The notes: generated by a model from the sequence alone, not told the origin. A stretch of DNA of 36,266 nucleotides from Candidatus Bathyarchaeia archaeon (GCA_049517415.1 JBEKSC010000028.1:1-36266), one strand, 5' to 3'; shown: positions 1-20,449, counted from the stretch's first letter. Translations and numbers: made by a program.

Positions 1-380
1 ACAAGCGGGATATTCAACTGGGACGCAACATGCAACGCAGCAGCCGTGTTGCCCCCTCCAAGCTCCGAAGCAACCGTTGCCGCGACCTTGCGCTTAAAAT
101 GGCGCTCTACCAATTCCAATGCCACGGCGAAGGGTTCGGATATGGTTACTTTCTTATTCGCCTTAACTCCCGGAGCTATGGATCCAATGTAATATGGGCT
201 TACAATCAGCGCATCATCTGAAATCTCATCAAGATCCACAACCCTAAGCTTGCGGCCAGCTTCCAAATCATTTTCGAGAGTCTTTCTCCCAGTTTCTGGA
301 CTACCTCCGCCGCCTGTCCCAAGGATGGTAGCTCCAACGACAAGATTGTCGATGGCATCCTTATTTTCGATTGAAAACAA
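1..380 (-). CDS. DUF917 family protein, N-terminal part (runs off the window edge)
   Basis: Not in the ORF track. Hand translation from TTG at 380 (GAGGTG upstream) gives MFSIENKDAIDNLVVGATILGTGGGGSPETG...VASELGGGNTAAALHVASQLNIPL. GxxxLGTGGGG and ExGGxN are DUF917 motifs; the frame is open to position 1. Confidence 0.8.
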   Translation of the reverse strand, partial: MFSIENKDAIDNLVVGATILGTGGGGSPETGRKTLENDLEAGRKLRVVDLDEISDDALIVSPYYIGSIAPGVKANKKVTISEPFAVALELVERHFKRKVAATVASELGGGNTAAALHVASQLNIPL

Positions 381-12772: not shown

Positions 12773-14191
12773 TTAACGGTATTTGTAGTGTCCCTCGAAT
12801 ATGTCGCGGGTCTTCTGTCCCTCTTCGTAGTATTCGTCGTCGAAAGCTGGCACCGTGAGGGTGGAAGCGAAGTCGTAGTTGCCTGACCACTTCAGGTCTA
12901 TGATTCGTCGGATGCGTCTTGCCACCTCGGGAACCGGAATGCGTTCCACGAGTGGTTCGAAGAATCCGACTATGATAAGTTTTTTCGCTTCGTCTTCCGA
13001 GAGGCCTCTGGCCATTAGGTAGAAGATTTCTTCTTCATTGATTTGCGCAACCGACGCTGAATGCGTGGCCTTGACCTCGTTCGTTTCGATCTCGAGGCCG
13101 GGGATTGCGTCGGCTAGGGCGTCTTTGCTGAGTATCATGGCGTGTTCTGCGAGGTAGGCTCGTGAGTTCTTAGCGTTCTCCTCGATTCTAATCATGCCCT
13201 TGAAAATTGCCTTTGCCTTATCTTTGACCACTCCTTTTGAAATTGCGTGGCCGCTAGTATTTGGTCCGCTATGAGTAATGTTCGAGACAGTGTCGAAGCG
13301 TTGTGTTCCAGCCCCAAATACAACCTCTACGTTCTCAGAGGACGCACCGGATTCCTTCATGACGCTCTCTAAGCGGGACCTTGTATAGGCGCCCCCGAGC
13401 AATCCTGTGGACCAAACGATCTTGCTATCCCGTTCCCCTATTGACTTCTTGTTCGAGAATATGTTCACGTTTTGGGATAGGTTGTTTATACTTCCGAAAG
13501 TAACTTCTGCGCCTTCGTGCAAATAGACTTCAGAGAGCCCACTGTAAGTGGATTTCTTCGATTGATCTGTTGAGCGAGTCGAATACAACTCTTCGAGGAC
13601 TGTAAACTTACTCCGATTATCCCCCATCACAAGGTTCTGGGCGAAAACCCCGTGCCCCTCCGAGTCGAGTATGGTTACAACCCTGAATGGGACGATTACT
13701 TCAAGTCCCTTCGGGACATGTAAGTAGAATCCTGAAGTGAAGAGCGCGTTGTTCAATGCCGCGAACTTATCATCTTCAGGGAGAATTGCTTTCTCCAGGA
13801 AATAGCGCCGGAATAATTCTGGTTCGCTTCGAATCGCAGTCCCGATATCCGTAAAGATTACGCCTTCCTTTCGGAGAGCTTCGGGCATCTCGGCTGGGAA
13901 CGTTTTCGATTCAATTTGAAAGATCGTGATCGCCTTGTCAGACTTCAGCTTCACCATAACGTCCTCCACTTGTGACTCGGACGGCTCTGAAGGGGCTAAG
14001 CTGACTGATTCGAAGTCGACGCCTGAAAGATCCGCGTACTTCGTATACAAGCTTGAGAGTTCGACGGGAAGTTTGCGAAACAGGTTGAGTGATTTGATGC
14101 GAAATTCCCGTAACCATTCGGGTTCATGCCTGGATTCCGCCAAGGAGCGGATGTGCTGTTCGCTTGCTTTTGTTAATGTCAACTCCGACAT
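12773..14191 (-). CDS. sufD: Fe-S cluster assembly protein SufD
   Basis: SufBD beta-helix; DKFAALNNA, IPGLEIETNEVKATHSASV, FYLMARG; follows sufB. Confidence 0.92.
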   Translation of the reverse strand: MSELTLTKASEQHIRSLAESRHEPEWLREFRIKSLNLFRKLPVELSSLYTKYADLSGVDFESVSLAPSEPSESQVEDVMVKLKSDKAITIFQIESKTFPAEMPEALRKEGVIFTDIGTAIRSEPELFRRYFLEKAILPEDDKFAALNNALFTSGFYLHVPKGLEVIVPFRVVTILDSEGHGVFAQNLVMGDNRSKFTVLEELYSTRSTDQSKKSTYSGLSEVYLHEGAEVTFGSINNLSQNVNIFSNKKSIGERDSKIVWSTGLLGGAYTRSRLESVMKESGASSENVEVVFGAGTQRFDTVSNITHSGPNTSGHAISKGVVKDKAKAIFKGMIRIEENAKNSRAYLAEHAMILSKDALADAIPGLEIETNEVKATHSASVAQINEEEIFYLMARGLSEDEAKKLIIVGFFEPLVERIPVPEVARRIRRIIDLKWSGNYDFASTLTVPAFDDEYYEEGQKTRDIFEGHYKYR

Positions 14192-14253: not shown

Positions 14254-15657
14254 CTAGCCGACGGAGCCGGCCATTTCCATTTGGATGAGCCTGTTCAATT
14301 CAATCGCATATTCCATCGGCAGTTCCTTGGTGAATGGTTCCATGAAGCCCATGACGATCATGCTAAGTGCTTCTTGCTCAGAGAGGCCTCGTGACATCAA
14401 GTAGAAGAGCTGGTCGTCTCCGATCTTGCCAACCGTTGCCTCGTGGCTTGTCGTCGCGTCGTCTTCGTTGATCTCGTTGTATGGGTAGGTGTCGGTCTTT
14501 GAGTATTCGTCGAGTAGTAGTGCGTCGCATCTCACGGTTGACTTGACCCCCTTAGCTCCTTTAGCAACATGTAGTAGGCCTCGGTAAGTTGTTCTTCCCC
14601 CATCTTTGGAAACGGACTTGGAAGTGATTCTGGAAGTCGTGTGTGGGGCGAGGTGTACCACTTTGCCGCCGGCGTCTTGGTGTTGGCCTTTACCTGCGAA
14701 AGCGACTGAGAGGATTTCGCCCTTAGCTCCCGGCCCGAGCAGGTAGATGGACGGGTACTTCATTGTGAGTTTGCTGCCGAGGTTTCCGTCAACCCATTCA
14801 ACAGTTGCGTTGGCATAAGCGTAAGCTCGCTTCGTGACCAAGTTGTAGACGTCATTAGACCAATTCTGGATAGTCGTGTAACGCACGTACGCACCCGGTC
14901 TGGCTATGATTTCGACGACCGCTGAGTGCAGGGAATCGGTTGAGTAGATTGGGGCCGTGCAGCCTTCTATGTAGTGTACTCGGCTGTTCTCGTCAGCTAT
15001 GATTAGTGTTCGCTCGAATTGTCCCATGTTTTGCGTGTTGATTCTGAAGTATGCTTGGAGGGGTACTTCGACGTTGACGCCTGGGGGAACGTAGATAAAG
15101 CTTCCACCGCTCCAGACCGCGCTATTCAACGCTGCGAACTTGTTGTCTTCCGGCGGGATTACGGTTCCGAAATATTTCTTGAAAATTTCCGGGTACTCTC
15201 GGAGTGCGGTGTCGGTGTCTGTGAAAATGATGCCCTTCTTCGCCAGGTCTTCTCTAAGGCTGTGGTATACAACTTCGGATTCATATTGTGCGCCCACGCC
15301 GCCGAGGAATTTTCTCTCAGCTTCGGGAATGCCCAGCTTATCGAATGTATCCTTAATGTACGAAGGCACGTCTTCCCATGAACGACTTTTCTTTTCGGTT
15401 GAGCTGGCATAATACAACATGTCGTCAAATTTGAGAGTGGTCAAATCGCCCCCCCACATGGGCAACGGTCTCTTGATGAAATGATCGTAAGCCCGTAGTC
15501 TGAACTGGAGCATCCAGTCAGGTTCCTTCTTTATCTTAGAAATCTTCTCGACAACCTCACGCGTGAGGCCCTTCGGAAACTTGTACTCGTAATCTTCGGT
15601 GGAATCTCTGAAGTTGTACTTAGTATAGTCTATGTCTAGGGTTTGCTTAGTTGCCAT
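14254..15657 (-). CDS. sufB: Fe-S cluster assembly protein SufB
   Basis: [55 protein letters not shown]. Confidence 0.97.
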
Positions 15658-15678: not shown

Positions 15679-15692
15679 ATGACATACGTAAT
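15679..15692. promoter_or_regulatory. Putative operator ATGAC-N4-GTWAT upstream of sufB
   Basis: ATGACATACGTAAT in the sufC-sufB gap; 13/14 identical to the sufC site. Confidence 0.6.
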
Positions 15693-15703
15693 AAGCGTTC
15701 CTT

Positions 15704-16501
15704 TCAAGAGGCTGTAGCTGCAGCCTCTTGTTCCACCCACGAGTAACCCCTTTCTTCTAGGATTTTGGCTAATTCCGGTCCTCCCGAGCGGAATATGCGC
15801 CCGTTCACCATAACGTGGACGAATTGGGGTTTTATGTAGTCCAAAATCCGCTGGTAATGCGTTATCAGAAGCACGCCCATCTCCGGCCCAGCCATGTGGG
15901 CAACCACCTCAGCCACCTTCCTGACCGCGTCAATGTCCAACCCGGAATCAGTTTCATCCATAATCGCGATTGCCGGTTGAAGGATTGCCATCTGGAGGAC
16001 TTCGGCACGCTTCTTCTCTCCGCCGGAGAATCCTTCGTTTAAGTAACGTTTCGCGAAGGCAGGATCCATGTCAACCTCCTTCAACTTCTCCTCGAGCTTC
16101 TTCTTGAACGCAAGGGCGGAGATCATCTCGCCGCCGACACCTTTCGAGTCAGCGTTCTTCTGCGTCTCGCCCCTCAGTGATCTGTACGCGGAGCGTAGGA
16201 ACTGCGCAAGTGGGACGCCTGAGATTTCAAGGGGGTACTGGAAAGCTAAGAAGAGCCCTTTCTTGGCTCGGGCGTCGGGGGTTAGGCCGACGATGCTCTC
16301 TCCATTTACGAGGATGTCGCCGCTGTCGACCTTGTATTTGGGGTGGCCCATGAGCGTGTTGGCTAGTGTGCTCTTACCGGACCCGTTTGGGCCCATGATC
16401 GCGTGAATTTCACCTTGTGTGACTTTCAGGTTGACTCCTTTCAGAATCTGTTTGCCCTCGATGCTTACGTGTAGGTCTTTAATCTCAAGCGTAGTTGGCA
16501 T
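15704..16501 (-). CDS. sufC: Fe-S cluster assembly ATPase SufC
   Basis: GPNGSGKST, LAFQYP, NEGFSGGEKKR, DETDSGLDIDA, ITHYQR. Confidence 0.97.
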   Translation of the reverse strand: MPTTLEIKDLHVSIEGKQILKGVNLKVTQGEIHAIMGPNGSGKSTLANTLMGHPKYKVDSGDILVNGESIVGLTPDARAKKGLFLAFQYPLEISGVPLAQFLRSAYRSLRGETQKNADSKGVGGEMISALAFKKKLEEKLKEVDMDPAFAKRYLNEGFSGGEKKRAEVLQMAILQPAIAIMDETDSGLDIDAVRKVAEVVAHMAGPEMGVLLITHYQRILDYIKPQFVHVMVNGRIFRSGGPELAKILEERGYSWVEQEAAATAS

Positions 16502-16556
16502 TACTGGTCACATGTGGTTTGTTTAGCGCGGTAGAACTTAGCTGTCGCTATTAAAT

Positions 16557-16570
16557 ATGACGTACGTAAT
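16557..16570. promoter_or_regulatory. Putative operator ATGAC-N4-GTWAT at the sufC promoter
   Basis: Near-perfect palindrome ATGACGTACGTAAT, directly upstream (minus strand) of TATA-like TTTAATA at about 16549..16555. Confidence 0.65.
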
Positions 16571-16576
16571 AAAAAA

Positions 16577-16681
16577 TCAGAATGGAAGCGGCGACGACTT
16601 CCTGTAAGGACCGCGAGTACGCTTCCGGGCCTTCGTTCTCTTTTCGATCTTGCGCTCTATCTTATCGGTGACATCTGACAT
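16577..16681 (-). CDS. Small basic protein (34 aa)
   Basis: Below the ORF-track cutoff. MSDVTDKIERKIEKRTKARKRTRGPYRKSSPLPF; GGGAG just upstream of the ATG, and the stop is followed by a T-run. Confidence 0.65.
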   Translation of the reverse strand: MSDVTDKIERKIEKRTKARKRTRGPYRKSSPLPF

Positions 16682-16734
16682 TGTTCTCCCGTTACTAAAC
16701 TGGGGACTAGAATTTCAATTTTAGGACAGGTTCA

Positions 16735-17229
16735 CTATGATTTCTGCTTGTTCACGCGCTCATACGCAACGCCCATGCTGCCCTTGTTGCCGTGAAGGAC
16801 TGACTGGTATTCGCCAATGTTGGTTGCTGGCCTCGAAAGGCGTTCCGGGCTCCAGAGAAGTAGCTCACGATCATACTCAGCCAACTCATAATCGGGCGTA
16901 TAGTCCAGCGCCCCAGTTGGACAATAATCTGTGCAGAAATGGCAAAAACAGCAGCGGGCGTACCAGTACTGTGGAAATCTCTTCTCAGGGTTCTGTGGAT
17001 ATTCCTTTTGGTCAGTGACTGGAACCATGCTTATGCATCTCTCGGGACAGATCCACGCGCAAATTCCGCAGCCAGTACATTTCTCCATGTAAAGCTGGTG
17101 TCGGCCTCTGTACCCTTTCGGAAGCAAAATTTTCTGGTAGGGGTACTTCAAAGTGAATGTTCTTTTGAACATGTGTTTGATTCCTTCGTACATTGCCCCG
17201 AAAACCAAGTCGATTGTGCCTCCAGTCAC
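16735..17229 (-). CDS. nuoI: Complex I-like subunit I (2x[4Fe-4S])
   Basis: TLKYP, RGRH, CTGCGICAWICP, CCFCHFCTDYCP. Confidence 0.88.
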   Translation of the reverse strand: MTGGTIDLVFGAMYEGIKHMFKRTFTLKYPYQKILLPKGYRGRHQLYMEKCTGCGICAWICPERCISMVPVTDQKEYPQNPEKRFPQYWYARCCFCHFCTDYCPTGALDYTPDYELAEYDRELLLWSPERLSRPATNIGEYQSVLHGNKGSMGVAYERVNKQKS

Positions 17230-18374
17230 CTGTCCGCCTCGACGGGCCAGTAGTCCAAGCTTCCATAGATGATTGGCATATCGGCAACATGCACGTTGCG
17301 GATGAGGTAGGGTAGTGCGATTAAGTTTCGGAAGGAGCCGTTCATGATTTTGACTCGGTACGGCTTGTCGCTATTGTCGCCCATGACCATCACCGTATAT
17401 TCTCCGCGAGAAGATTCAACGCGACCAGTTGCTTCACCTTCGGGTGCGACGAGCGGAGCTTTTCGAGCGATGGGCCCTTTCGGAATTTTCTCGAGTGCCT
17501 GTCGGAGGATCTTGATGCTCTGTTTCATCTCCTCAAATCTTACCATGAACCTAGCATAGGAGTCGCCCTCTTCATAGGTAGGAATCTCAAAATCGAGATC
17601 CGCGTACGCTCCGTACGGTTCGACCTTTCGAACATCATACTTAACGCCTGAGCCTCGGAGCACTGGGCCTACTACGCCTAACTCTATTGCTTCCTGCCGC
17701 TTGAGCACACCAATTCCCTTAGCGCGCGCGACGACGAGTGGATTACTGAAGAAGATTCGGTCGTACTCGACGAGCCTCTTCTCAAAGTAGTCGAGTAGTT
17801 TGGTGAGTTTCTCTCCAAATCCCGCGGGCAAATCTCGCCTGGGGCCGCCTGGCGGAAGAAACGAGTACGTTAGGCGCGCACCTGTCAGCATCTCTGCGAG
17901 TTCAATGAATAGATCTCGGTCGCCGAAGGCCCACATGAAAATTGTTGTGTGCCCAGAGAATACTCCGGCGTTTATTGCCACCCAATATAGGTGGTTCATT
18001 ATGCGGTTCATTTCAGCCGCGATGGTTGAGATATATTGGCCACGGGGTGGAACTTCGACGCCTTGGAGTTCTTCAACGGGGAGCACGTAGCCCCAGTTTA
18101 GGTGGATCGCGTCAATGATGCATGGCCTCTCAAGATGCGGGATGTTACTCACGTAATTTCGATACTCAGCGATCTTCTCGCAGCCCCGGTGAACATACCC
18201 TATGTCGGTGTCTACGGAGACGATGTAGTCACCGTCGACACGGATGAGCATTCGTAAATGACCGGATCCTGGGTGTTGCGGCCCAACGGATACGTCCAAG
18301 GTCGACGGTTCCGCGGTCTTAGTAATCGTGATGGGAGGGGCTGGAGGCTTTCTCTCAGCGGGGGGTGTTGTCAT
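17226..18374 (-). CDS. nuoD: Complex I-like subunit D
   Basis: GPQHPGSG, GYVHRGCEK, GPVLRGSGV.YDVRK, ESSRGE, C-terminal SLDYWPVEADR. No paired CxxC Ni-binding motifs. Confidence 0.9.
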   Translation of the reverse strand: MTTPPAERKPPAPPITITKTAEPSTLDVSVGPQHPGSGHLRMLIRVDGDYIVSVDTDIGYVHRGCEKIAEYRNYVSNIPHLERPCIIDAIHLNWGYVLPVEELQGVEVPPRGQYISTIAAEMNRIMNHLYWVAINAGVFSGHTTIFMWAFGDRDLFIELAEMLTGARLTYSFLPPGGPRRDLPAGFGEKLTKLLDYFEKRLVEYDRIFFSNPLVVARAKGIGVLKRQEAIELGVVGPVLRGSGVKYDVRKVEPYGAYADLDFEIPTYEEGDSYARFMVRFEEMKQSIKILRQALEKIPKGPIARKAPLVAPEGEATGRVESSRGEYTVMVMGDNSDKPYRVKIMNGSFRNLIALPYLIRNVHVADMPIIYGSLDYWPVEADR

Positions 18375-18865
18375 CGTTGCCCCATCTCCGGGAACTTAAT
18401 GTCCTTCAACATAGGGGGTGGCCCATCCCAATTGTCCAGTGTGAGTAATTTTCTTAGGTCGGGATGCCCCTCGAATTTTACCCCGAACATTTCGAATGTT
18501 TCCCGTTCGTGGAAATGCGCGCTTTGCCACACTGAAACGACTGAGGCGATCGATGGGTTATCCCGTGGTAATTCTGTTTTCAGAATAACGACAAGGTCTT
18601 GAATTTCCGGTTTTGAGAATGAGCCCGTGAAATACAGTACTTCTATCTTCTTGTGGGTTGGGTAGTCGATGCCTGCGATTCCTTTTACGTGGTCGAAGCC
18701 AGCTTGGTCTCGCATGAATGTTGCAATTTCTTGGAGGTGGTCCTTGTCAAAGGTGATGGTTACGCGCCGCGCTCGGTCGACCTTGGTTTCTTTGATCGCT
18801 TCCGGAAATTGGTCTTTCAGTTGATTGATTATTCCTTCTTCTCGGGGAAGCGCGACTTGGGTCAC
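18371..18865 (-). CDS. nuoC: Complex I-like subunit C
   Basis: GIDY, ERETFEMFGVKFEGHPDLRKLL, PMLKD. Confidence 0.9.
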   Translation of the reverse strand: MTQVALPREEGIINQLKDQFPEAIKETKVDRARRVTITFDKDHLQEIATFMRDQAGFDHVKGIAGIDYPTHKKIEVLYFTGSFSKPEIQDLVVILKTELPRDNPSIASVVSVWQSAHFHERETFEMFGVKFEGHPDLRKLLTLDNWDGPPPMLKDIKFPEMGQR

Positions 18866-19383
18866 TAGGCGAAGACCTCTTCTCTTCGTATTTTCTCCCG
18901 GAGCTTCACAATAGCGCTGAGGAGTGCTTCGGGCCTAGGTGGGCATCCGGGCACGTACACATCCACCGGGAATATCTTGTGCACGTCATTTACGATACTG
19001 TATGAATCATGAAAGAGGCCCCCAGAACAAGCGCAGTCCCCCATTGCAATTACATACCTTGGCTTGGCCATCTGCTCGTAAACAATTTTGAGGCGCTTGG
19101 CCATTTTCTTCGTAACGGTACCTTCCACAATGATTAGGTCGCATTGCCGAAGGCCCCCCGCAACTGCCTGTAGACCAAACCTTTCAGGGTCGAGCCGAGG
19201 GCCCATCATTGCTCCAAACTCCGTGCTGCAACAAGCTGTGGTAATGTGCACTGGCCACAGCGCATACATTCGGCTCCAGTTGATCAAGTACTTGATAGGG
19301 CCTGAACCAGTTATCGTTCTAACGACTTCGCTGATCTTTCCAATCCAAACCCCAGCGAAGTCCAGCAGTGTTTCTTGACTCAC
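18865..19383 (-). CDS. nuoB: Complex I-like subunit B
   Basis: TACCSTE, DPERFG, VIAMGDCACSGG, PVDVYVPGCPPRPE. Confidence 0.92.
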   Translation of the reverse strand: MSQETLLDFAGVWIGKISEVVRTITGSGPIKYLINWSRMYALWPVHITTACCSTEFGAMMGPRLDPERFGLQAVAGGLRQCDLIIVEGTVTKKMAKRLKIVYEQMAKPRYVIAMGDCACSGGLFHDSYSIVNDVHKIFPVDVYVPGCPPRPEALLSAIVKLREKIRREEVFA

Positions 19384-19502
19384 CTGTTAATCCACTGCCC
19401 CTATCGAGTGATAATTATGGAAACGGGAGTCTGTAAGCATTGAAAAGGTTTGCCAGATTCTTGAGGGGGCGTGTCGCTTCAATGACAGACAGGACTTCGG
19501 CT

Positions 19503-19961
19503 TCAGGCTAGTTCCTTTAGGGCTGCTACGACTTCCTCGGTGTGCTTGGAAACGTCAACCTTAGGGAAGACTTTTGCCACCCTCCCATTCTTGTCAATGA
19601 TGAAGGTTATGCGGTTCGTGGACGACCCGATATCTTTGAGGACACCGTAGGCCGTAGCAACTCGCTTGTCTTTGTCGCTAATCAATGGGAACGGTAACTG
19701 GAATTTCTTTGCGAATTTGTCGTGGGACTGAATGCTGTCGAGGCTGACGCCTACTATTTCTGCGCCCATGTCTCTAATTGGTTGTATATTGTCCCTGAAG
19801 CTGCAGGCTTCCCTCGTGCAGCCTGGTGTATCGTCCTTGGGGTAAAAGTAGAGCACGACGTTCTTCTTTCCAACAAAATTCTTTAGTCCTAATCTGCTGC
19901 CGTCCGAGGTTGGCCCTTCAAAGTCGGGAGCTTTGTCTCCTGCTTTGACTTTAATTTCCAT
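19503..19961 (-). CDS. bcp: Peroxiredoxin, BCP/PrxQ type
   Basis: GDKAPDF and VLYFYPKDDTPGCTREACSFRD. Start moved to the ATG at 19961 (MEIKVKAG). Confidence 0.92.
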   Translation of the reverse strand: MEIKVKAGDKAPDFEGPTSDGSRLGLKNFVGKKNVVLYFYPKDDTPGCTREACSFRDNIQPIRDMGAEIVGVSLDSIQSHDKFAKKFQLPFPLISDKDKRVATAYGVLKDIGSSTNRITFIIDKNGRVAKVFPKVDVSKHTEEVVAALKELA

Positions 19962-20001
19962 TGAATGATACACTCCGAATCTTAGGCTTGTTTGGGTGGA
20001 A

Positions 20002-20385
20002 CTATTGTTCACATACGTGGCAGGAATCTATGTCCATGCCTGGTTCTAACTTCTTGTGAAGGTCACACATGTATCTATTTCTGCGAACGTATTCGCACGC
20101 AGCCTCAATTCTGCTCATGACTTCGACCGGTTGTGCTTTCTGGGAAGAGACCATTTCGGCGATTTCCGTGGTGGCTTGGTCGATTTCCCTTATGCCAATG
20201 AGCCTAATCGCGGCGCCTCGTTTCTCGTGGAGGTATTTGCTCACTGCGGGTTGCGTGACTCCTAGAAGTTTAGCCGCTTCCTGTTGTGTCATGCCGTGAT
20301 CTTCGACCAGCCTCTTCACGATAAGCGCTCTAATGGCTGGTATGACGGATTTCGAAGCTAACTCTTCGGGGAGTATCATAGGCAA
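20002..20385 (-). CDS. HTH transcriptional regulator (COG2522-like) with C-terminal Cys/His cluster
   Basis: IPAIRALI..GMTQQEAAKLLGVTQPAVSKYL.EKRG; tail C..MCDLH..CHVC. Confidence 0.85.
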   Translation of the reverse strand: MPMILPEELASKSVIPAIRALIVKRLVEDHGMTQQEAAKLLGVTQPAVSKYLHEKRGAAIRLIGIREIDQATTEIAEMVSSQKAQPVEVMSRIEAACEYVRRNRYMCDLHKKLEPGMDIDSCHVCEQ

Positions 20386-20408
20386 GTTGAAGTTCCACGA
20401 CTCCGAAT

Positions 20409-20422
20409 ATGACGGAGGTTAT
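20409..20422. promoter_or_regulatory. Putative operator ATGAC-N4-GTWAT at the regulator's own promoter
   Basis: ATGACGGAGGTTAT, overlapping the downstream edge of minus-strand TATA TTTATAT (about 20421..20427). Confidence 0.55.
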
Positions 20423-20449
20423 ATAAACGTGCTCTGGCCGCTTTCATAT

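Follow-up and report, generated by a model that had tools for sequence, protein, structure and literature searches.

Three copies of a 14-bp palindrome in a 36,266-nucleotide stretch of DNA from a Candidatus Bathyarchaeia archaeon (GCA_049517415.1, JBEKSC010000028.1:1-36266; this whole stretch is referred to below as the window) appear to form a conserved operator that joins two genes of iron-sulfur (Fe-S) cluster assembly, sufC and sufB, to the gene of a 127-residue helix-turn-helix (HTH) protein, here called the regulator. The HTH protein would bind the palindrome as a predicted dimer and, while its Cys3His site holds an Fe-S cluster, would cover the TATA box and the adjoining recognition element (BRE) of transcription factor B (TFB), resulting in repression. 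Upon failure of the cluster, whether by scarcity of iron or reduced sulfur or by oxidative damage, the apoprotein would release the operator, and sufC, sufBD, sufS, rhodanese, cysteine synthase (where present), a ZIP importer and the regulator's own gene would be switched on, with the peroxiredoxin gene bcp following by read-through. For the whole chain of dimer binding, TATA/BRE repression and release by loss of an Fe-S cluster, we estimate a probability of about 40%. Its parts differ in strength and are taken up separately below.

The pattern ATGAC-N4-GTWAT, which an earlier reading of the window from its sequence alone (the sequence-only reading) had placed at 15679, 16557 and 20409, indeed matches exactly at those positions (14 bp each, + strand). 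There is no fourth match in the window, and each of the three sites precedes a minus-strand gene, namely sufB, sufC and the HTH gene. Also borne out were the C..CxxH..CxxC ending of the regulator (C97..C107xxH110..C122xxC125), followed 40 nt on by a bcp/PrxQ-type gene, and, as read from the sequence, the position of the site upstream of the TATA-like box at sufC and overlapping it at the regulator. Shuffles of the window (n = 100) gave a mean of 0.10 matches and a maximum of 1, a comparison that is post hoc in that the pattern was picked after the sites had been spotted. In the entire genome the pattern occurs 16 times in 2.65 Mb, compared to approximately 10 occurrences estimated from base frequency. 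The three sites in the window are by themselves weak evidence. Because the window count is post hoc and the genome count is not far above chance, the case for an operator rests on the relatives.

Comparison within the genus, own genome included, revealed that the site is kept at the regulator in 20 of 21 loci, at sufC in 22/22 and at sufB in 22/22, the sole miss at the regulator (L020) having one extra base in the spacer. The columns of the site are conserved at 90% or more, except for position 3 and part of the variable core, while the downstream flanks drop to 30-70% (19 loci each). The motif is thus conserved upstream of the orthologous suf and regulator genes as the flanks drift. Two other genera, which carry the regulator and sufC on separate contigs, have retained the site at both. 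The consensus is a symmetric palindrome, (T)AT[G/A/T]AC-RTAY-GT[C/T/A]AT(A/G); the same orientation that had been noted for the three sites therefore marks only the better half-site. A strict form of the pattern found 92 sites versus 4 for a reversed control in 25 genomes of the family, about half of the 92 being the suf sites from which the pattern was derived, and 3 sites versus 2 reversed in 16 genomes of other families. A related pattern is present in 46 of 121 genomes of the class and is concentrated in few families. These comparisons argue that the three sites are a real, conserved operator.

The reach of the operator beyond suf was estimated with a matrix built solely from 74 regulator, sufC and sufB sites of relatives, with which the promoters of other genes were scored from -150 to +10 at a cut-off of at least 8. 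Sites were found before 23 of 25 rhodanese genes (one locus, too short, was dropped), 15 of 20 ZIP transporter genes, 15 of 29 sufS genes (one locus dropped) and 5 of 16 cysteine synthase genes. The controls were guaB (0/18), nuoB (2/20), bcp (0/19) and rps12 (0/10), and shuffles scored at about 1.5%. Because these held-out promoters carry sites and the controls nearly none, the regulon is wider than suf. In the own genome, sites precede sufS (score 11.5), rhodanese (10.5) and ZIP (16.3), and neither of its two cysteine synthase-like genes has one. At a score of at least 16 the matrix found 11 matches in the own genome, 9 of them outside long open reading frames (ORFs), versus 3 and 0 for the reversed matrix; for 20 permuted palindromes the means were 4.0 and, outside long ORFs, 1.8. 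The best match of the whole genome is the sufC operator (16557..16570).

We then examined 35 loci with strict sites outside the training genes, among the matches listed; representatives were confirmed by profile search and the rest by visible similarity. Fe-S or sulfur genes lie behind 13 of the 35 (sufS and rhodanese four times each, cysteine synthase three times, sulfite reductase, and a separate sufB), and one of the three cysteine synthase sites is divergent with a ThiS-ThiF-rhodanese fusion. Among the other loci, the site lies between metF and an HTH paralogue in two, before ZIP in one, before repeat peptides in two and inside a coding region in two, and about seven had no assignable gene. 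In other Bathyarchaeia, sites precede genes for an Mrp/NUBPL protein with an FeS_assembly_P domain, a stand-alone FeS_assembly_P protein, ferredoxin and molybdopterin oxidoreductases, several further loci from this pattern search being coding-region or unassigned matches; a hemerythrin-domain gene is likewise faced by sites flanking the regulator, as is a flavodiiron gene in other classes. Sulfite reductase, MetF and the ThiS-ThiF-rhodanese fusion are further targets in relatives. By contrast, no promoter site was seen at 13 ferritin-like and 14 DtxR loci, which gave six scattered scores of 9-11, and a classical iron regulon was rejected on this ground. The shared operator of the Fe-S regulon suggested for sufC and sufB therefore stands, but the regulon extends to sulfur-supply genes, ZIP and small repeat-peptide genes; it is one of Fe-S assembly, sulfur supply and one metal importer, not a classical iron regulon.

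The internal sufB promoter proposed earlier is supported by the site at 22/22 loci and by another genus, in which sufB stands apart and has its own site (L085); sufD is likely read together with sufB. Control of bcp, also suggested earlier, would be indirect. Its upstream regions lack the site (0/19), it adjoins the regulator in this genus only, and control is conceivable only by read-through from the regulator, with which bcp is likely co-transcribed. In one metatranscriptome (0.05 word share), 11 contigs of a relative cover sufD, sufB, sufC and the junction of regulator and bcp, giving neither start sites nor levels; the single RNA contig that spans the junction is a weak hint of read-through.

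The regulator is the only member of its family in its own genome, two further matches (E 0.09 and 0.25) covering the HTH only. The family was found in 142 of 151 genomes of the phylum (Thermoproteota) in full-length, short and fused forms, the fused forms resembling the thiamine regulator ThiR. In a quick tree of 83 rows and 131 columns, all rows of one clade (27/27) have the site with its 4-base spacer (the N4 site) before the gene, 14 of them coming from the protein search alone and 13, hence biased, via the operator pattern, and so do 7/7 rows of the genus. Elsewhere in this set the N4 site precedes 2 of 29 other full-length rows, 0/13 ThiR-type fusions and 0/7 short forms. With half-sites only, scored at 10 or more over 64 rows from the protein search, a spacer of 4 was found in 15 rows and a spacer of 3 in 11 different rows, including five of the seven short forms, and no gene had both. 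Spacers of 2 and 5 occurred in 1 and 2 rows, respectively, and shuffles for spacers 4, 3, 2 and 5 gave 8, 4, 2 and 7 of 320. The same half-site with a spacer that depends on subfamily is the pattern expected from a family of dimeric binders. In other genera and families the operator, often in tandem, furthermore accompanies the gene of the regulator at loci without synteny, in support of the autoregulation that had been postulated. The 127-residue protein is very probably the binder of the palindrome.

This assignment is sequence-based, the genes of many full-length homologues lack the site in front of them, and an HTH paralogue of 246-248 residues has the site in some relatives, all of which would suit a different, unlinked transcription factor as binder, with the HTH gene a mere member of the regulon. 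We consider this very unlikely given that the site follows the regulator gene across unrelated loci and families, that the spacer changes with subfamily, and that the 248-residue paralogue was not found in the own genome. The paralogue, for which no Pfam match was obtained, has a site-bearing promoter divergent with ZIP or metF (L095:728-1468, L104:683-1429, L114:1663-2409, L206:985-1725). An AlphaFold model of the regulator is all-helical with a confidence (pLDDT) of 95.8. Searches with the model returned no match in the PDB by Foldseek at E <= 0.001 and only unrelated helical bundles by VIA-align (best Z 5.3); phmmer against the PDB gave short HTH matches only. The sequence-only reading had called the protein COG2522-like; databases name the homologues merely as a predicted transcriptional regulator or HTH protein.

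The position of the site with respect to the promoter differs between genes and between genera. At the regulator (20/20 sites) and sufB (22/22) of this genus, site and TATA-like box overlap; at sufC (22/22) the box comes after the site. In two other genera the arrangement is reversed, with the sufC site overlapping or following the box in 6/6 loci and the regulator site preceding it in 3/4, although four of the six sufC loci came via the operator pattern and the TATA patterns were written after the data had been inspected. Sites of the upstream type end one base from the TATA-like box, on BRE positions. In archaeal promoters a protein on the TATA box or the BRE would block loading of TATA-binding protein (TBP) and TFB or of polymerase, and because either position would have this effect we read repression throughout.

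The sequence-only reading had seen in the upstream site at sufC a hint of activation, as opposed to repression at the regulator's own gene, and a dual regulator that recruits TFB to sufC and represses the promoters with overlapping boxes would be compatible with any signal, as it concerns direction only. It would account for the TATA-like box that always follows the sufC site in this genus (22/22) and for a sufC promoter with no purine-rich BRE, and weak BREs beside activator sites are known in archaea. Nonetheless, the sufC site ends one base before the box, on the BRE itself, and elsewhere the site lies on the other side of it (6/6), as it lies upstream at the regulator (3/4). Opposite control of sufC and sufBD would moreover be odd for subunits of one complex. 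Since site and box swap sides between genera, repression everywhere is favored over activation at sufC; as proposed, the contrast of activation with repression is not supported. Repression at all sites is probable, and dual control improbable.

The nature of the signal is less certain. Comparison of the family members revealed two clusters of potential ligands. Site B (C107, H110, C122 and C125, with H or C at 110) occurs throughout the full-length rows and the 13 ThiR-type fusions. Site A (positions 7, 94 and 97) reads C/C/C in the 27-row clade, as it does in each of the seven short forms, which have no site B. In favor of an Fe-S cluster, the regulator has no other sensing domain and its targets correspond to the needs of a cell short of clusters, and the ferritin and DtxR loci lack the site in a genome encoding two DtxR-family proteins. 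We tentatively prefer an Fe-S cluster over zinc or mononuclear iron, at somewhat less than even odds.

A number of observations weigh against the scheme proposed here. Site A is E7/E94/C97 in this regulator and E/E/S in L019. C107, H110, C122 and C125 are kept in 13/13 ThiR-type fusions, which have a separate effector domain, and a set retained beside such a domain may be structural zinc; because of this retention, the likeness to the ligands of IscR and SufR is weakened. The paired CxxH..CxxC, which is CxxC..CxxC in many homologues, resembles zinc or rubredoxin-type mononuclear sites. As to position, 13 of 15 sufS sites and 11 of 23 rhodanese sites fit neither TATA-position class. No site was scored at 14 of the 29 sufS loci, two of them unreadable (contig end, masked); of the 12 readable ones, four follow sufD, another four follow sufC, and the last four follow some other ORF or no ORF at all. 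Cysteine synthase has the site in just 5/16 loci, and the nuoB control scored in 2/20. In the tree the genus groups with mostly site-less homologues and not with the site-sharing 27-row clade (Shimodaira-Hasegawa (SH) value 87, few columns, quick tree). Finally, the genomes compared are kin, and the counts are not independent.

Some of these points fit another switch acting through the same operator, a thiol-redox or persulfide response in which zinc occupies the Cys3His site and the repressor comes off once its cysteines are oxidized or sulfurated. Zinc-thiolate switches have precedents in RsrA and Hsp33, the Cys3His set is invariant in the ThiR-type fusions as a structural zinc site would be, and peroxiredoxin (by read-through), rhodanese, the flavodiiron protein and the molybdopterin oxidoreductases are among the targets. 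At its core, however, the regulon serves Fe-S assembly and sulfur supply, bcp adjoins the regulator in this genus only, and the ferritin-like loci, plausible in an oxidative-stress regulon, have no promoter site, such that we regard this switch as less likely than loss of a cluster, yet the most serious competitor to it. The ZIP sites (15/20), the failure to find feoB in 5/5 genus genomes searched (ZIP could then be the iron route), the sites before genes of His-rich peptides and the genus-wide conservation of the Cys-to-Glu changes at the second site would instead suit mononuclear Fe(II) or Zn, sensed at Cys3His or in a pocket of E7, E8, E94 and C97, with importer and suf repressed when metal is plentiful. 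Rhodanese (23/25) and the other sulfur-supply targets are unexpected for a plain metal regulon; the genome already has two DtxR-family proteins, and neither ferritin nor DtxR loci have the site. Mononuclear metal is accordingly an unlikely signal, and an Fe-S cluster remains our preferred one.

Known regulators resemble this one in part. ThiR is an archaeal thiamine regulator in which an HTH domain is fused to ThiN. Over its entire length the 127-residue protein, CxxH..CxxC included, matches the N-terminal domain of a protein of ThiR type (L173:3001-3927; hhalign 99.7%, E 3.8e-25, 127 columns) encoded beside thiD/tenA. Unlike that protein, the regulator ends at residue 127 with no ThiN domain; the ThiN profile PF10120, which matched 5 of 14 controls, matched nothing in the genome. 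Its targets are Fe-S and sulfur genes, and none of the 13 ThiR-type fusions has the N4 operator before its gene. No thiamine gene is among the targets examined, and the genome has partial Thi4 matches only. IscR, a bacterial Rrf2-family protein with a [2Fe-2S] cluster on a 3Cys+1His ligand set, is an autoregulated controller of Fe-S biogenesis. Similarly, the present operator lies, in silico, before the regulator's own gene and Fe-S biogenesis genes, and three Cys and one His are conserved, but fold, ligand spacing and operator differ, and no Rrf2 match was among the 16 Pfam and 6 NCBIfam matches at E <= 0.01. The name and function of ThiR are cited in PMC12029414.

SufR (COG2345, with putative archaeal homologues) is described in a preprint (bioRxiv 10.64898/2025.12.26.696629) as a winged-HTH protein with an AT-hook (GRP) and an operator of CAAC-N6-GTTG or ACACT-N5-TGTGA with A/T-rich flanks, the archaeal homologues being encoded immediately upstream of suf. 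Both are, or would be, suf-operon repressors with C-terminal Cys ligands, and the regulatory logic is as proposed here; SufR has a [4Fe-4S] cluster on three C-terminal Cys and one non-Cys ligand, and the regulator likewise has Cys and His residues that could serve as ligands. The regulator, in contrast, is an XRE-type HTH protein with no GRP and an all-helical model lacking wing strands, its operator is ATDAC-N4-GTHAT, and its gene lies 3.5 kb from sufC behind complex I-like genes, or on another contig in two genera. The archaeal DtxR family (TroR/Idr/SirR) has the motif TTTAGGC-N3-CCTAAA according to PMC10783522; it is a different family with a different motif, and the palindrome is not at the DtxR loci of this genome, which has DtxR proteins. 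In the literature searched, so far as its text was accessible, archaeal SUF control was limited to DtxR-network regulation in a halophile and the putative SufR homologues. No earlier description of this regulator or operator was found there, a mention in the primary ThiR papers or RegPrecise being possible; a lead to a Pyrococcus protein, SipR, yielded nothing relevant, and PMC10746257, PMC8351635 and PMC13325395 added nothing on the regulator. From its sequence, the regulator is best described as sharing ThiR's DNA-binding domain and working like IscR and SufR in its logic.

Table 1. Features of the window and loci of the repeat-peptide cassettes.
Feature	Position	Strand	Evidence or remark
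HTH regulator, 127 aa, XRE/HTH_3	20002..20385	-	HTH_3 E 2.9e-7, above cut-off; model; ThiR-type alignment
Operator at regulator promoter, ATAAC-CTCC-GTCAT on gene strand	20409..20422		overlaps TATA-like box; 20/21 genus loci
TATA-like box of regulator, TTTATATA	20420..20427	-	overlaps regulator site by 3 bases; conserved columns, 19 loci
bcp/PrxQ-type peroxiredoxin	19503..19961	-	40 nt downstream of regulator; without own site
Operator at sufC promoter, ATTAC-GTAC-GTCAT on gene strand	16557..16570		one base upstream of TATA-like box, over BRE; 22/22 genus loci
TATA-like box of sufC, TTTAATAG	16548..16555	-	starts one base past sufC site; conserved columns, 19 loci
sufC, Fe-S assembly ATPase	15704..16501	-	TIGR01978 above cut-off
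Operator at putative internal sufB promoter, ATTAC-GTAT-GTCAT on gene strand	15679..15692		22/22 genus loci
TATA-like box of sufB, CTTATTAC	15688..15695		overlaps sufB site
sufB, Fe-S scaffold	14254..15657	-	TIGR01980 above cut-off
sufD	12773..14191	-	TIGR01981 above cut-off
Own-genome peptide locus, G000:C6	L058:1572-1727	+	
Own-genome peptide locus, G000:C49	L066 near 1-140	-	
Further peptide cassette loci	L112, L113, L081, L080, L329-L333		non-syntenic

Two strong sites of the own genome (C6:12420 and C49:180) overlap TATA-like boxes before ORFs of 44-51 residues that have a shared leader and in-frame repeats, and four more such loci were found in three relatives (G002, G003 with two, and G005). 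At six of six loci the site scores 14-21, and in the five measured it lies 47-55 bases before the start. The cassettes share a ribosome site and a 3' hairpin with a U-tract, in unrelated contexts. Their repeat units differ and are diverse in His and aromatic residues (e.g. IAHLGGLHYFQPQM, LLHAGIGWQGYVSY, HNRDLTWLF, IPWAHSNLF), and metagenome copies of one locus hold 1, 3 or 4 units of a 14-residue repeat, in frame each time. The exact pattern retrieved such cassettes in just 3 of 59 genomes of the family. From their sequences the products look like precursors of modified or metal-binding peptides. No peptide maturase was found in the peptide-bearing genomes, whose SPASM proteins resemble sulfatase-maturase-type or other radical SAM enzymes and are unlinked to the peptides; the MNIO family was not found in 5/5 genomes searched; two peptides had no Pfam match; and the Atlas matches for one peptide (0.77) were within chance. 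About 420 bases behind the C6 cassette are threonine synthase-like, MoaD/ThiS and ThiF-rhodanese genes (L121:6045-8765, +, G000:C6), and between them and the cassette, on the opposite strand, is a 55-residue cysteine synthase-like remnant.

Other genes were observed near the operator. A protein of 112-125 residues has it in four genomes (L086:1202-1579 (-), L089:1201-1578 (-), L092:1165-1509 (-) and L207:1237-1575 (+)) and in two of the four is divergent from a cysteine synthase-like gene; it was not found in the own genome and has no Pfam or NCBIfam match (L086 searched), and it is a candidate new sulfur-handling protein. A 41-51-residue protein with two CxxC-like motifs lies behind the operator in two relatives (L102:1403-1528 (-) and L118:1335-1490 (-); no Pfam match, L118 searched). 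In several Bathyarchaeia families a protein of 310-350 residues with a Cys-rich N-terminus and winged-helix repeats is encoded divergently from the regulator (L191, L195, L197, L203, L225, L230, L126), and the operators between the two genes are often in tandem, about 20 bp apart. Two genomes of a single family (L187, L216) also have the operator between TFB and NrpR genes that diverge from it, which may point to a connection with a basal transcription factor or with the control of nitrogen. In the own genome, strong or medium matrix matches lie near secreted or membrane proteins with no assigned function (G000:C8:86566, C39:1791, C1:188331), and weaker matches lie near NiCoT, hemerythrin and UbiX/Lrp genes.

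Between bcp and sufC in the window are genes similar to nuoB, C, D and I (16735-19383, -), with no membrane subunits nearby. A basic ORF of 34 residues, below the usual gene-calling size, lies between the nuoI-like gene and sufC (16577-16681, -; C-terminus ...RTRGPYRKSSPLPF), and most relatives of the genus show a stretch coding for GPYRKS upstream of sufC.

Added here are the held-out sulfur and ZIP targets, the swap in position of site and TATA-like box, the analysis of two ligand sites together with ThiR, the spacer code and the peptide cassettes. A small regulator, widespread and unstudied, is accompanied by a defined operator, by targets that range from scaffold through sulfur supply to metal import, and by a natural switch of spacer. 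It would also lend a role to the metal site that ThiR has in its N-terminal domain. A bolder and rather unlikely proposition, though one the family pattern allows, is that this HTH family, near-universal in Thermoproteota, would be the counterpart of IscR and SufR on an unrelated fold, with a half-site plus N4/N3 spacer code, two modular Cys sites, direct sensing of Fe-S clusters, and, in this lineage, induction of mobile cassettes of short His- and aromatic-rich repeat peptides as precursors of metal-scavenging peptides produced upon failure of the Fe-S supply. With a soluble protein of 127 residues and three native 14-bp sites, archaeal Fe-S sensing becomes a testable question, and the operator offers a route to new Fe-S and sulfur genes, such as the 125-residue protein of unknown function and the repeat peptides, in uncultured Bathyarchaeia.

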